The notes below the pieces were generated by a model that worked only from the letters and a program-made list of their open reading frames with translations, did no database searches and was not told the DNA's origin. Source: a virus (lineage: Duplodnaviria; Heunggongvirae; Uroviricota; Caudoviricetes). From it: 7,660 nt of DNA. Numbering within the stretch: position 1 is the first letter of the stretch; each line of letters starts with the position of its first letter. The translations under genes were made by a program, and so were the position numbers. This document shows positions 2,158-7,660 of the stretch, piece after piece. The stretch is taken from IMG/VR virus record IMGVR_UViG_2579778529_000005. One strand, given 5' to 3'.

Positions 2158-2542
2158 TATCCACAGAGCCTAAAGTATGTGCATATGGATGTGCTATTGT
2201 GCGCCCTCGCAGATTTGCATCATTTTCTAAATTCACTGAACGAAACAGGGCATCAACAAGGCTCTGTACAATGCAAAGGCAATCGAAGACTGTCGCTGTT
2301 TCTGTTTTGATTGATGAAAGAACATGGCCATTCACGCAAACAGAAATTACCCGTTCATTAACATCGCTTTCCTGCTTTTGATTATCAGAACCATATAGCC
2401 CAGAAAAAGCATTGCGCACATTACGAACCATATTATCGATGGTTTCTTTTTTGGTGTATGCCGGGTCAATTTTCACCAGACTATCACCGAGAGTCGTTGC
2501 AGCAATTGTCTGGATTTCTTTTGGTAAATCTTTAAATTCCAT
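2135..2542 (-). CDS. Hypothetical 135-aa soluble protein, extra gene in the dicB operon between ydfC and dicF; function unknown
   Basis: ATG at 2542 with GAGG RBS, starting 22 bp downstream of the ydfC stop on the same strand. Intact 135-codon frame ending TAA at 2135..2137. I do not recognise the protein (MEFKDLPKEIQTIAATTLGDSLVKIDPAYTKKETIDNMVRNVRNAFSGLYGSDNQ...). Confidence 0.65.
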   Translation of the reverse strand: MEFKDLPKEIQTIAATTLGDSLVKIDPAYTKKETIDNMVRNVRNAFSGLYGSDNQKQESDVNERVISVCVNGHVLSSIKTETATVFDCLCIVQSLVDALFRSVNLENDANLRGRTIAHPYAHTLGSVDIKDPTNL

Positions 2543-2564
2543 TATTAGCCTCGTTGGTTAGCTA

Positions 2565-2783
2565 TTAACGTGGGTATGTAATCATTCTGGCAATGCTTAA
2601 TGCCGCTGCTTTTTCCAGATTGGTGATATCCTGCTCCAGAGCGGACAGATTTTCAGCCTGCTTAGCCCTGGCTTCATTAGCCCATTTCAGATCCTGCGCT
2701 GCATTAATTTTCTGGCGCATCCACTCATAAAGTTCATCATCGGTATAGTCTGGCGCGATTATGACGGGTTCTCGTTTCTGCAT
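2565..2783 (-). CDS. ydfC: YdfC, 72-aa Qin-prophage protein of unknown function
   Basis: MQKREPVIIAPDYTDDELYEWMRQKINAAQDLKWANEARAKQAENLSALEQDITNLEKAAALSIARMITYPR matches my recollection of K-12 YdfC. GAGGAA RBS 6 nt upstream of ATG at 2783. Confidence 0.85.
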   Translation of the reverse strand: MQKREPVIIAPDYTDDELYEWMRQKINAAQDLKWANEARAKQAENLSALEQDITNLEKAAALSIARMITYPR

Positions 2784-2812
2784 ACTGATTCCTCGCGGTG
2801 CTGTTTCGCTTA

Positions 2813-2941
2813 TCAGCCGTTAGATTTTGCCGAGCTGGAAAGCGCCTGTTTAAACTCACTGAAGCTGAGAGCTTCTTCGCCTTCGGCAAGGTCTTCGAAG
2901 TATTCTTCGTAAGCCTTTTCCATGATTGTGTCGAAATCCAT
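2813..2941 (-). CDS. ydfB: YdfB, 42-aa Qin-prophage small protein
   Basis: Not in the ORF track (too short). Hand translation of the minus strand from ATG 2941 gives MDFDTIMEKAYEEYFEDLAEGEEALSFSEFKQALSSSAKSNG then TGA (plus 2813..2815). The ydfA stop sits 1 nt before this ATG (TGATATG on the minus strand). Confidence 0.85.
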   Translation of the reverse strand: MDFDTIMEKAYEEYFEDLAEGEEALSFSEFKQALSSSAKSNG

Positions 2942-2942
2942 A

Positions 2943-3098
2943 TCACTCACCTGAGTTTCTTTCCAGCCAGCGACGGGCACCATTTTCGGTTTTAAACGTT
3001 TTGCTTTTGGTATACGTCATTGCGGTGAACGTGCCGTCCTGGTTTGGAAACACGCCGTACACCAGAGATTCGTTGTTGCCAAGATCGATAGTATCCAT
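2943..3098 (-). CDS. ydfA: YdfA, 51-aa Qin-prophage small protein (first gene of the dicB operon)
   Basis: Internal ATG at 3098 of track ORF 2943..3176 gives MDTIDLGNNESLVYGVFPNQDGTFTAMTYTKSKTFKTENGARRWLERNSGE. GAGG RBS 5 nt upstream. The longer track ORF starts with TTG at 3176 and would run through the operator region. Confidence 0.8.
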   Translation of the reverse strand: MDTIDLGNNESLVYGVFPNQDGTFTAMTYTKSKTFKTENGARRWLERNSGE

Positions 3099-3264
3099 GC
3101 TGACCTCATTTCCCCTTAACGCTGGGGTAGCGGAACTGTTTGCTGAGAACACCGTGCGGTGTGTTGATGCAAACAAGGTTAGCCATGACTAACATATCGG
3201 TCAAGTGATATTGTATGCTATAGCTAACATAATTGATGTGGTAAAAGATAACTCATTGATGATG
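3099..3264 (-). promoter_or_regulatory. PdicB promoter/operator region between dicA and ydfA, with DicA-operator-like palindrome GTTAGCCATGACTAAC (3178..3193)
   Basis: Intergenic on the operon strand. Contains GTTAG-N5-ACTAAC at 3178..3193 and a TTAGCTATAGCATA-like motif on the minus strand near 3215..3228, both recurring in the dicA-dicC intergenic region. Confidence 0.55.
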
Positions 3265-4491: not shown

Positions 4492-5437
4492 ACGCCCACT
4501 GGTTATAAACACGCAGCTGGCAATGAAAATTGGCTTAAACGAAGCCATTGTTTTGCAACAACTGCACTACTGGTTGAGAGATACCAACTCCGGCATGGAA
4601 TGTGATGGTGTTCGCTGGATTTATAACACAACGGAACAATGGCTGGAACAGTTCCCATTCTGGTCAGAGTCAACGTTAAAGCGCGCGTTTGCAAGTCTGA
4701 AAACGCTGGGGCTTTTGCGTTGTGAAAAGCTCAATAAATCAAAGCGCGATATGACCAATTTCTACACGATCAACTATGGGAGCGAGCTTTTAGATGGTGG
4801 CAAATTGAGCGAATCCATCGGTTCAAAATGCGCCGCTCCATCAGGTCAAAATGACACGATGGAAGAGGTCAAAATGAAACGCTCCATTGGTTCAAAACGA
4901 CCCAATGTCATCGGGTCAAAATGGCCTGATGATCTTACAGAGAATACAACAGAGATTACTACAGAGAATAAAAACACTTTTCGTCCGGAAGCTTCGCAAC
5001 CGGACCCGCAGACGACTGAACAGGATTTTTTAACCCGGAACTCCGACGCGGTTGTGTTTAGTGCGAAAAAACGCCAGTGGGGTAGCAGGGAGGATTTGGC
5101 GTGTGCGCAGTGGATCTGGGGGCGGATCGTGGGTCTCTACGAACAGGCAGCCAGTGATGATGGCGAGATCATGCGACCAAAAGAGCCTAACTGGACTGCC
5201 TGGGCCAATGACGTGCGCACAATGCGGATGCTGGATGGCAGAAGCCACAGACAAATTTGCGAAATGTTTGGTCGGGTTCAGCGAGATCCATTCTGGGTAA
5301 AAAACATCATGAGCCCGTCAAAGCTCCGCGAAAAATGGGACGAACTGGTCATCCGCCTGGGACGTTCACCTGTACAGCGTTGTGTTAATCATATTTCTGA
5401 ACCGGATACAGAAATTCCGCCTGGTTTCAGAGGATAA
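4472..5437 (+). CDS. Phage replication initiator (lambda O-like), 321 aa from ATG 4472, with origin iterons inside the coding sequence
   Basis: N-terminal region MSLLFAERPLVINTQLAMKIGLNEAIVLQQLHYWL... looks like the DNA-binding domain of O-type initiators. Central SIGSK/GSK repeats are encoded by five 23-bp-phased iterons followed by an AT-rich tract, the classic lambdoid ori-in-O layout. The track start at 4418 is a TTG; ATG 4472 is preferred. Confidence 0.75.
   Translation: MSLLFAERPLVINTQLAMKIGLNEAIVLQQLHYWLRDTNSGMECDGVRWIYNTTEQWLEQFPFWSESTLKRAFASLKTLGLLRCEKLNKSKRDMTNFYTINYGSELLDGGKLSESIGSKCAAPSGQNDTMEEVKMKRSIGSKRPNVIGSKWPDDLTENTTEITTENKNTFRPEASQPDPQTTEQDFLTRNSDAVVFSAKKRQWGSREDLACAQWIWGRIVGLYEQAASDDGEIMRPKEPNWTAWANDVRTMRMLDGRSHRQICEMFGRVQRDPFWVKNIMSPSKLREKWDELVIRLGRSPVQRCVNHISEPDTEIPPGFRG
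4814..4976 (+). repeat. Putative replication origin: five about 17-bp iterons (consensus TCCATCGGTCAAAATG) phased every 23-24 bp (starts 4814, 4837, 4860, 4883, 4907), then an AT-rich tract with three ACAGAGA(A/T)TA repeats (4937..4970)
   Basis: Direct repeats read from the sequence. The architecture matches lambda ori (iterons plus AT-rich DNA-unwinding element within O). Confidence 0.65.
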
Positions 5438-5477
5438 GTGTTGATTTCAGGTCATGAGGTTATTTTAAGGGGGACTT

Positions 5478-5900
5478 GTGGCAAAAGTTTTTACACAAGA
5501 AGAGCGGGAAAAAATTAAATGGCAGGTGGTGGAACTCGTGCGCCAGAGCGGCCGTGAGACGTTACGGCAACTGGAAGCTAAAACAGGTGCGACTAGATAT
5601 CTGATGAGCGTTCTTGCCAGAGAGCTGGTAGCCAGTGGCGATGTATACAACTCCGGCTACGGGTTATTCCCCTCTGAACAGGCGCGTAAGGACTGGCAAA
5701 ACGCCCGCAAAAAACTCTCGAGGGCAAAGGTGAAGAAACCTGCTGTGGTTGATCCGGACCTTATCTGGTCATCACCTGACGGAGAAATACGTCGCTACGA
5801 CAGTCGCCTAAACATAATCTGTCGCGAGTGCCGGAAGAGCGAAGTTATGCAGCGCATACTGGCTTTCTATCAGGGTAATTTTCAGGACGTGGCGCAGTGA
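5478..5900 (+). CDS. Hypothetical 140-aa phage protein (GTG start), translationally coupled to the downstream methyltransferase-like ORF
   Basis: GTG at 5478 preceded by AAGGGGGA RBS at about 5-nt spacing. Basic protein with a CRECRK motif. Its stop overlaps the next start (GTGA at 5897..5900). Confidence 0.6.
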   Translation: MAKVFTQEEREKIKWQVVELVRQSGRETLRQLEAKTGATRYLMSVLARELVASGDVYNSGYGLFPSEQARKDWQNARKKLSRAKVKKPAVVDPDLIWSSPDGEIRRYDSRLNIICRECRKSEVMQRILAFYQGNFQDVAQ

Positions 5901-6253
5901 GTGCACCGGCAACCATTCTTGATATGTGCTGTGGCAGCCGCATGTTCTGGTTCGATAAGTCTGACGAACGGGCGATATTCAGCGATATCAGAAAAGAAGG
6001 ATACACATTACGCAATGGGAGACGCTTGATTATCAGCCCTGACATTATCGCAGATTTTCGTGCATTATCATTTGCAGACGCATCTTTTTCGATGGTTGTA
6101 TTAGACCCTCCGCATCTTGAGAGTGTTGGTGATAACGCCTGGATGGGAAAGAAATATGGACGGCTGAATAAAGATGCCTGGCGTGATGATTCGCGACAGA
6201 GATTTAAAGAAGCCTTTCGGGTGTTGAGGCCGCACGGCGTTCTGATTTTTTAA
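5897..6253 (+). CDS. SAM-dependent methyltransferase-like protein, 118 aa, possibly C-terminally truncated (candidate pseudogene)
   Basis: Motif I-like LDMCCGS near the N-terminus and motif IV-like VVLDPPH about 60 residues later (the D/N-PP-Y/F/H signature of amino-methyltransferases), then RVLRPHGVLIF. The frame stops at TAA 6251..6253 but stays open for about 30 more codons (WNETQIPVSQILALTDRKPVICQRTGKKR) before the next stop. IS3 is inserted about 150 bp downstream. Confidence 0.5.
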   Translation: MSAPATILDMCCGSRMFWFDKSDERAIFSDIRKEGYTLRNGRRLIISPDIIADFRALSFADASFSMVVLDPPHLESVGDNAWMGKKYGRLNKDAWRDDSRQRFKEAFRVLRPHGVLIF

Positions 6254-6402
6254 TGGAATGAAACGCAAATACCGGTAAGCCAGATTCTGGCACTGACAGA
6301 CAGAAAACCTGTTATCTGTCAACGAACAGGGAAAAAACGATAAAACCCACTGGATTATTTTTATGAAAGAGGCATCCAGTGAGTAGATTCGTAAGGCTAC
6401 AG

Positions 6403-6441
6403 TGATCCTACCCACGTAATATGGACACAGGCCTAAGCGAG
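6403..6441. repeat. IS3 terminal inverted repeat (right end, IRR)
   Basis: Imperfect inverted match to the terminal 39 bp at 7622..7660 (TGATCYTACCCA...TGGACAC...CTAAG). Confidence 0.85.
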
Positions 6442-7299
6442 GTTCTGGTTTTCAAATTGTTCCGGACTGAGGCCGCCACACCAACTGTGCCGCCGCCACC
6501 GATTGTAATCACATTCGATATAATTAAACACCGTTGCCCGCATTATTTCCCGGCTGATAAAGTGTTCTCCATGGATACATTCCACTTTCAGCGAATGAAA
6601 GAAGCTTTCCACGCAGGCATTATCGTAGCAGCAACCTTTTGCGCTCATACTTCCACGCAGATTATGCCGCTTCAGTTGCGCCTGATAATCTGCTGAACAG
6701 TACTGGCCTCCACGGTCCGTGTGAACGATAACGTTCCGGGGCCTCTTACGCCGCCACAGCGCCATCTGCAGGGCATCGCAGGCCAGTTGCGCCGTCATGC
6801 GTGGCGACATTGACCAGCCAATAACGGCACGTGACCACAGGTCAATGACCACTGCCAGATACAGCCAGCCTTCATCTGTACGTAAGTACGTGATGTCTCC
6901 TGCCCACTTCTGGTTCGGGCCACTGGCGTAAAAATCCTGCTCCAACAGATTTTCTGACACAGGCAGGCCGTGTGCGCGGTAGCTGACCGGGCTGAACTTC
7001 CGGGAGGCCTTTGCCCTCAGTCCCTGACGGCGCAGGCTTGCCGCCACGGTTTTTACGTTAAAGGGGTAACCCTGAGCACGCAGTTCATCCGTCAGGCGTG
7101 GGGCACCGTAACGCTGTTTTGACCGGGTAAAAGCCGCGAGGACAACGCTGTCGCAGTGTTGGCGGAACTGCTGACGCGTGCTTATCCTTGTCCGCCGCTG
7201 ACACCACGTATACCAGCCGCTGCGGGCCACCCGGAGCACGCGGCACATTGCTTTGATGCTGAACTCAGCCTGATGTTTTTCAATAAAGACATACTTCAT
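6433..7299 (-). CDS. insF: IS3 transposase OrfB (InsF), DDE integrase-type catalytic domain, 288 aa
   Basis: [36 protein letters not shown]... matches IS3 InsF as I recall it. Normally expressed as an OrfAB fusion by -1 frameshifting. Confidence 0.95.
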
Positions 7300-7595
7300 T
7301 TCAGGCGCTTCGCGAAGTATGTCGCGGCCTTTTGGAGGATAGCCAGCTCTTCATCCCGTTCTGCCAGCTGGCGTTTGAGACGTGCAATCTCGGTAGACAT
7401 CTCCAGTTCACGTTCAGAAGACGTCTGCTGATTTTGCTGTTTACTGCGCCAGTTGTAGAGCTGTGATTCATACAGGCTGAGTTCACGGGCTGCGGCAGTA
7501 ACACCGATGCGTTCAGCAAGCTTCAGGGCTTCACTGCGAAATTCAGGCGAATGCTGTTTACGGGGTTTTTTACTGGTTGATACTGTTTTTGTCAT
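7296..7595 (-). CDS. insE: IS3 transposase OrfA (InsE), HTH DNA-binding protein, 99 aa
   Basis: [54 protein letters not shown]... The track ORF carries a 3-codon N-terminal extension (MTHMTKTV); the 99-aa form is the known product. Confidence 0.9.
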
Positions 7596-7621
7596 GTGAG
7601 TCACCTCTGACTGAGAGTTTA

Positions 7622-7660
7622 CTCACTTAGCCGCGTGTCCACTATTGCTGGGTAAGATCA
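7622..7660. repeat. IS3 terminal inverted repeat (left end, IRL)
   Basis: Reverse complement reads TGATCTTACCCAGCAATAGTGGACACGCGGCTAAGTGAG. Flanking target duplication cannot be assessed because the window ends here. Confidence 0.85.

Follow-up and report, generated by a model that had tools for sequence, protein, structure and literature searches.

A truncated methyltransferase open reading frame in a Qin-type prophage of Escherichia coli is very probably the relic of a longer phage gene

The window, i.e., the whole 7,660-nucleotide stretch of viral DNA analysed here, belongs to a cryptic lambdoid prophage of E. coli of the Qin type, of which it forms the immunity and replication region. Up to base 6402 it is 99.7-99.9% identical to the Qin prophage of strain ATCC 8739 and to phage PhiR42_1, and hundreds of E. 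coli chromosomes carry its segment 5400-6402 at 99.9% identity, with the match stopping exactly at 6402; over 5890-6402 the ATCC 8739 DNA is identical to that of the window. The gene order in ATCC 8739 and PhiR42_1 runs from an exonuclease gene through ydfD, dicB, ydfC, ydfB, ydfA, dicA and dicC to a gene of the YdaT family, which is followed by an O-like replication gene, a DUF977 gene and the gene of a 118-aa methyltransferase. The hallmarks of a Qin-type prophage were all found in the window (the divergent dicA-dicC pair, DicF, dicB, ydfA-C and the YdaT-like, O-like and DUF977 genes). The DicF antisense RNA is encoded by the minus strand at 1538-1589, where Rfam matches it over its full length (76.7 bits, E 4e-16), and family searches on the neighbouring genes returned YdaT_toxin, CII-like and O-like matches. 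Additionally, a 634-bp segment located immediately downstream of ydfC, between ydfC and DicF (1911-2544), has no counterpart in the Qin of ATCC 8739, which is otherwise 99% identical; the minus-strand ORF of this segment, with 135 aa (2135-2542), has no PADLOC match and matches phrog_1363, a family of unknown function (E 4e-45).

The DUF977 gene (also LygF or 'Ren-like'; 140 aa, 5478..5900, plus strand) was identified by matches to Pfam DUF977 (E 5e-29) and phrog_142 (E 2e-47) and is annotated as a DUF977 family protein in ATCC 8739. It is followed on the same strand by the ORF under study (5897..6253), a truncated methyltransferase ORF with a GTG start, 118 codons and a TAA stop, whose product is identical to the RefSeq protein WP_001310834.1 annotated in ATCC 8739. 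An earlier note, made from the sequence alone, had described a GTGA overlap between the two genes as well as LDMCCGS and DPPH motifs in the 118-aa product, and both descriptions are borne out by the sequence and its translation. The overlap (5897..5900, plus strand) joins the GTG at 5897-5899 to the upstream TGA at 5898-5900, forming a translational coupling signal. LDMCCGS, the SAM-binding loop or motif I, is encoded at 5918..5938 (plus strand; aa 8-14), and DPPH, the motif IV that is catalytic in amino-methyltransferases, at 6104..6115 (plus strand; aa 70-73). In an alignment of 65 sequences ranging from Enterobacteria to Firmicutes (A3), D9, C12 and S14 of motif I are invariant and L8, C11 and G13 nearly so, while D70, P71, P72 and H73 of motif IV are all invariant.

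Downstream of this ORF the window is occupied by IS3 (6403..7660, minus strand), recognized by its length of exactly 1258 bp, its terminal inverted repeats (TGATCCTACCCA... and TGATCTTACCCA...), its overlapping orfB (6433-7299; 288 aa) and orfA (7296-7604; 102 aa from the first listed start codon) and its annotation as an IS3 family transposase in matching genomes. The orfB-side end of the element faces the ORF at a distance of 149 bp from the TAA (the earlier note had put it at about 150 bp) and 16 bp from the ancestral TAG described below. The left inverted repeat of IS3 is complete in the window, whose final base is also that of the repeat; contigs that break at repeated elements are expected to end in this way. 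In the uninterrupted Qin of ATCC 8739, the genes downstream of the methyltransferase ORF bear pseudogene annotations; they comprise a DUF7167 gene interrupted by a stop codon, a hypothetical gene with a frameshift and a partial ISNCY transposase.

Homology to methyltransferases is strong. The 118 aa match the PHROGs family phrog_954 'DNA methyltransferase' with an E value of 7e-58 over profile positions 52-165 of 229, and combine this profile match with motif I (LD.CCGS) and motif IV (DPPH). The intact 162-aa E. coli protein P0010 matches the same profile over positions 52-205 (E 8e-87) and, in PADLOC, both MTase_II (PDLC03288, 2e-71) and oMTase (PDLC03730, 1e-47) over their full length. Pfam gave marginal matches to Methyltransf_11/25, and NCBIfam none above its cut-offs. 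The family is very large: it comprises 1111 clusters at 50% identity (E <= 1e-10), and the candidates of one search fell into more than 8000 clusters at 90% identity. It extends to phages of Streptococcus, Vibrio, Acinetobacter, Porphyromonas, Listeria, Gordonia, Enterococcus, Staphylococcus and Salmonella.

The members of this family are longer than the ORF in the window, which represents the N-terminal 73% of a protein of about 162 aa. The full-length proteins closest to the ORF product come from E. coli, Salmonella, Cronobacter and Klebsiella; they have 160-162 aa and read ...GVLIFKWNETQIPVSQILALTD.KPVI.QRTGK.DKTHWIIFMKE..., and intact E. coli alleles (examples of which are the 162-aa P0010 and P0013) are 82-87% identical to the window over the 118 aa. 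Proteins of 157-172 aa are encoded by 75 of 86 loci (80 one-genome-per-species records and six further loci), the best 120 Firmicutes-type clusters span 150-173 aa, and about 120 of the best 150 cluster representatives align to residue 140-160 or beyond. The gp44 protein of Listeria phage A006, with 154 aa, has the same C-terminus, ending ...LIFKWNEDQ...KTHWLVFMKEEQA. When the ORF was searched by tblastn with its stop read through, at least 80% of the query was covered in 244 of 254 phage records and, among the matches listed, all those with such coverage cross the stop and reach residue 145-148. The check proposed in the earlier note was thereby carried out: homologs read through the TAA position, where they carry AAA (Lys), and continue for about 43 residues more. 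Of the two options that it had left standing, decay and a small intact enzyme, the first is strongly favored by this homology to methyltransferases and by full-length homologs that end elsewhere.

Two lesions separate the window from these homologs. The first is the nonsense codon TAA at 6251..6253 (plus strand), which replaces the AAA of intact alleles and, with it, a Lys119 that is nearly invariant in full-length family members. In a DNA alignment (A1) of the window, the ATCC 8739 Qin and three intact alleles (L007 and L008, 162 aa; L003, 161 aa), position 6251 is T in the window and in ATCC 8739, and A in all three intact alleles. Past the TAA the frame remains open over 6254-6340, up to a second TAA at 6341-6343, giving 29 codons where the earlier note had estimated about 30. 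This in-frame relic (6254..6343, plus strand; WNETQIPVSQILALTDRKPVICQRTGKKR) had been thought to be possibly a product of chance, an open tail of such length having a roughly 1-in-4 probability of arising at random, but it is homologous residue for residue to full-length C-termini, corresponding to residues 120-145 in the intact proteins P0010, P0013 and P0017. Additionally, the T responsible for the TAA extends a run of T residues from TTTTTAAA to TTTTTTAA, and this run, together with a weak stem at 6219-6242 that has 3 G-C pairs only, was flagged as terminator-like by a consensus scan (window positions 6219-6250).

The second lesion is a frameshift caused by a +1 insertion in a run of six A residues (6332..6337, plus strand), which adds one column to the alignment with respect to the three intact alleles and is common to the window and ATCC 8739. 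The context of the run reads GGGAAAAAACG in the window and GGCAAGAACG or GGAAAGGGTG in intact alleles. Beyond it, translation in the second frame yields an out-of-frame relic (6336..6386, plus strand; NDKTHWIIFMKEASSE) that matches the C-termini of P0010 and P0013 and runs into the ancestral stop codon, TAG, at 6384-6386; KTHWIIFMKEASSE* is readable in frame 2 only, out of frame with the ORF. The ancestral C-terminal block KTHWIIFMKE... survives in the window only in this form. Instead of the uninterrupted ORF of about 150-170 aa found in the family, with its C-terminal block in one frame, the window has 118 codons, a TAA and a frameshift, and the block follows the stop with its second half in another frame. 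The lost region is conserved over long distances, as F118, W120, Q124, T150, H151, W152, F155 and K157 are invariant in the cross-phylum alignment of 65 sequences. The earlier note had considered its own pseudogene call weak; the homologous tail and the second lesion, which the note had not described, now support it.

Signs of decay are also found within the 118 aa. With 89 full-length homologs as the reference for conservation, the product departs from residues conserved in at least 90% of them at eight positions (Y36, R39, N40, S58, L69, S76, A94 and R102); seven of these departures occur in none of the 89 homologs, and Y36 occurs in two. Four of them, D40N, P58S, F69L and G102R, replace residues that are invariant even across phyla, and the family core of D40, P58, F69 and G102 is accordingly missing from the ORF, which has N40, S58, L69 and R102, each in 0 of 89 homologs. 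The same stop occurs in the alleles P0004 and P0005, both of which retain R76 and L99, with F69 retained as well in P0005; this suggests that some damaging substitutions post-date the stop. In P0012, a metagenomic fragment, residue 119 is Glu, and yet the frameshifted end is the same. Lineage-specific non-synonymous and synonymous changes stand at 13:17 for the window and at 4:11 and 8:10 for two intact alleles, counts that are not decisive by themselves as to relaxed constraint.

Other E. coli alleles of the family are broken in different ways. P0014 (82 member sequences) has a -1 shift at the same A-run, i.e., in the opposite direction to that of the window, and reads GKTIKPTGLFL*; the run at 6332-6337 thus seems to be an indel hot spot. 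The stop of P0032 lies one codon later than that of the window, P0019 is frameshifted at an earlier point, and P0020 and P0022 are disrupted after residue 93.

Comparisons with known methyltransferases place the family in the class I fold in general terms. The intact protein and two family profiles were compared by sequence with solved structures; no relative reached significance, and the best match, PH0226 (E 4e-4), covered the N-terminal half only. Two AlphaFold runs, one with a shallow and one with a cross-phylum alignment, both gave a single domain with a pLDDT of about 68, and a Foldseek search of the PDB with this low-confidence model returned class I methyltransferases only, at a generic level of similarity (TM about 0.3-0.44). 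The top match was the m2G tRNA methyltransferase Trm11 (m2G10; TM 0.44), and an m4(2)C rRNA synthase, an N4-cytosine DNA methyltransferase and M.BceJIV were also on the list. In these models (pLDDT about 68), the stop falls inside a predicted β-strand, comprising residues 110-119 in the first and 114-121 in the second, and further predicted strands, at 138-143 and 150-157 and of equally low confidence, lie after it.

The motif IV of amino-methyltransferases, (D/N/S)PP(Y/F/W/H), is found in N6-adenine and N4-cytosine DNA enzymes and in m2G RNA enzymes such as Trm11. The family of the window resembles all of these in having motif I before DPPH; its intact proteins, with only about 160 aa and a single domain in the low-confidence models, would hardly accommodate a target-recognition domain as a separate unit. 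The CPS-53 prophage of E. coli K-12 also has a short ORF labelled 'putative methyltransferase', YfdM, which was considered as a truncated relative; it proved unrelated, with a BLASTP E value of 9.3 and no detectable similarity.

The allele is widespread in E. coli. Of 5426 complete E. coli genomes, 465 contain an exact 71-mer spanning the TAA, always as a single chromosomal copy, and none of the 5426 contains the same 71-mer with AAA. A Shigella flexneri locus has the same TAA allele, without IS3, and the copies annotated as WP_001310834.1 in ATCC 8739 and PhiR42_1 are the same gene and allele as in the window, without the downstream IS3. RefSeq, which treats the product as an ordinary protein in hundreds of genomes, names it 'class I SAM-dependent methyltransferase', and the feature tables of two records carry no pseudogene flag.

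Collectively, this evidence indicates that the ORF is very probably a pseudogene, the relic of a phage class I SAM-dependent methyltransferase of about 160 aa. As judged from sequence comparison, translation of the intact phage gene would have been coupled to that of the preceding gene by the GTGA junction, and its product, according to the annotation of the family, would have methylated DNA. The change of the Lys119 codon from AAA to TAA cuts the protein in the middle of a β-strand predicted by the low-confidence models, the extra A in the homopolymer run shifts the frame ahead of the invariant THW..F.K block, and D40N, P58S, F69L and G102R have replaced family-invariant residues. The allele is old and inherited with the prophage, and IS3 inserted afterwards, 16 bp past the original stop. 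The window copy shares with the intact loci L007 and L008 its place after the DUF977 gene, the GTGA overlap and motifs I and IV, and differs from the intact family in having a stop at codon 119, a frameshift ahead of the THW block and replacements at four invariant residues. Having kept motifs I-IV and the coupled start, the 118-residue fragment may well be translated; if made, it is very probably inactive, because the last two predicted β-strands of the modelled fold are missing.

The biological weight of this finding is small, as it represents routine gene decay in a cryptic prophage. The relic is already in the databases, under a somewhat misleading annotation as an intact protein. Since the truncated allele is carried by at least 465 complete E. 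coli genomes and named as an intact methyltransferase, the 118-aa ORF should not be counted as a candidate active enzyme in methylome or restriction-modification surveys.

That annotation, the identical allele in 465 genomes and the retention of the SAM-binding motif I and the DPPH motif IV would also be expected if the 118-aa protein were an intact, naturally short and working methyltransferase. This is nonetheless very unlikely. The short forms seen are either copies of this Qin nonsense allele or broken and fragmentary sequences that occur sporadically. Among full-length relatives, the 43 residues past position 118 are conserved, with eight invariant positions, from phages of Enterobacteria to those of Firmicutes. 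The sequence after the stop is still a recognizable C-terminus, partly out of frame, and four family-invariant residues within the 118 aa have been replaced. The high copy number, in turn, is explained by the vertical inheritance of a 99.9% identical prophage, in which neighbouring genes are pseudogenes as well.

The fragment could instead have been kept for another job, such as binding SAM, acting as a dominant-negative form or being restored to full length at low frequency by read-through combined with slippage at the A-run. The coupled GTG start is intact, and the A6 run is a sequence of the type on which polymerases or ribosomes slip, with P0014 shifted at the same place. However, two independent recoding events would be needed on one message to restore the full length, and the relic past the TAA offers no in-frame ATG, GTG or TTG. 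Intact alleles do not preserve the A-run (GGCAAGAACG, GGAAAGGGTG), which is therefore not a programmed site, and the close alleles P0001, P0002, P0004 and P0005 differ by many amino-acid changes. We thus consider retention for another job very unlikely. The specific proposal that the fragment is still made, by way of its coupling to the DUF977 gene, and has persisted in hundreds of E. coli lineages because of a role other than methylation is also very unlikely; if true, the 118 residues might bind SAM or interfere with a related methyltransferase of a superinfecting phage.

Finally, truncation of the gene by IS3, suggested by a distance of only 149 bp from the TAA, can be dismissed, as it is already refuted by IS3-free Qin copies with the identical TAA and frameshift, and the element starts 16 bp past the ancestral TAG at a junction found in 0 of 5426 genomes, against 465 of 5426 for the TAA allele. 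Returning to the reading of the ORF as a decayed gene, the same IS3-free copies, compared at the sequence level, date the stop and the frameshift to long before the insertion of IS3, which interrupts nothing in the methyltransferase gene. The junction at 6402/6403 was searched for in the 5426 complete E. coli genomes without a match; in NZ_CP104117.1 an IS3 lies about 570 bp further along than the site in the window.

Two further features of this region are of minor significance. The earlier note had placed a hairpin at about 6293..6322, in the spacer before IS3. The inverted repeat, TGACAGA-N14-TCTGTCA, does exist (6294..6321, plus strand; 7-bp arms and a 14-nt loop), but it is not in a spacer, as it lies within the relic coding sequence, over the LTDRKPVICQ codons of the ancestral protein. 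Its fold has an energy of -13.1 kcal/mol (z = -1.84), and 11 of 200 shuffled sequences fold as well. Of 75 homologous genes, only 4 preserve all 7 pairs, and these four represent one allele (L003-L006) in which both arms are changed. As an RNA or terminator element the repeat was rejected, since no T-run follows it, no terminator-like site was reported for it in a scan of 5300-6500 and it is poorly kept; it is an incidental palindrome in coding sequence. Likewise, a minus-strand ORF of 104 codons (6101-6415), antisense to the methyltransferase relic and with no match in PHROGs, starts inside the IS3 terminal repeat and is therefore impossible in Qin copies without IS3. It is probably noise.

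It is the intact relatives, rather than the copy in the window, that represent a worthwhile experimental target. They are predicted to be orphan (solitary) DNA amino-methyltransferases because DPPH follows motif I, the databases name the family accordingly and their neighbours are replication or recombination genes; the PDB and the literature searched contained no experimentally characterized member of the family. The methyltransferase of phage A006 also adjoins replication genes, lying directly after them. In lambdoid and P22-like prophages, the intact copies (L007-L008 versus L003-L006) occupy two different places: the replication region, after the DUF977 gene, and the recombination region, where they follow DUF2737 or other small genes and precede Ead/Ea22. 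The GTGA junction is found at L007 and L008 and, with a different upstream gene, at L003, and on this basis the intact relatives appear to be expressed by coupling to whichever gene precedes them. Together, the two locations and the shared junction (L003, L007/L008) indicate, at the level of gene order, that the methyltransferase gene moves as a small cassette. In addition, seven loci (L023, L025, L028, L031, L032, L033 and L083, at about 2501-3250) from Atlantibacter, Pluralibacter, Superficieibacter, Franconibacter and Sodalis encode a fusion of about 250 aa, in which the methyltransferase is continued in frame by a conserved C-terminal extension of about 90 aa (...LLQYATNRIVELE...HHINRMWLEKMP...).
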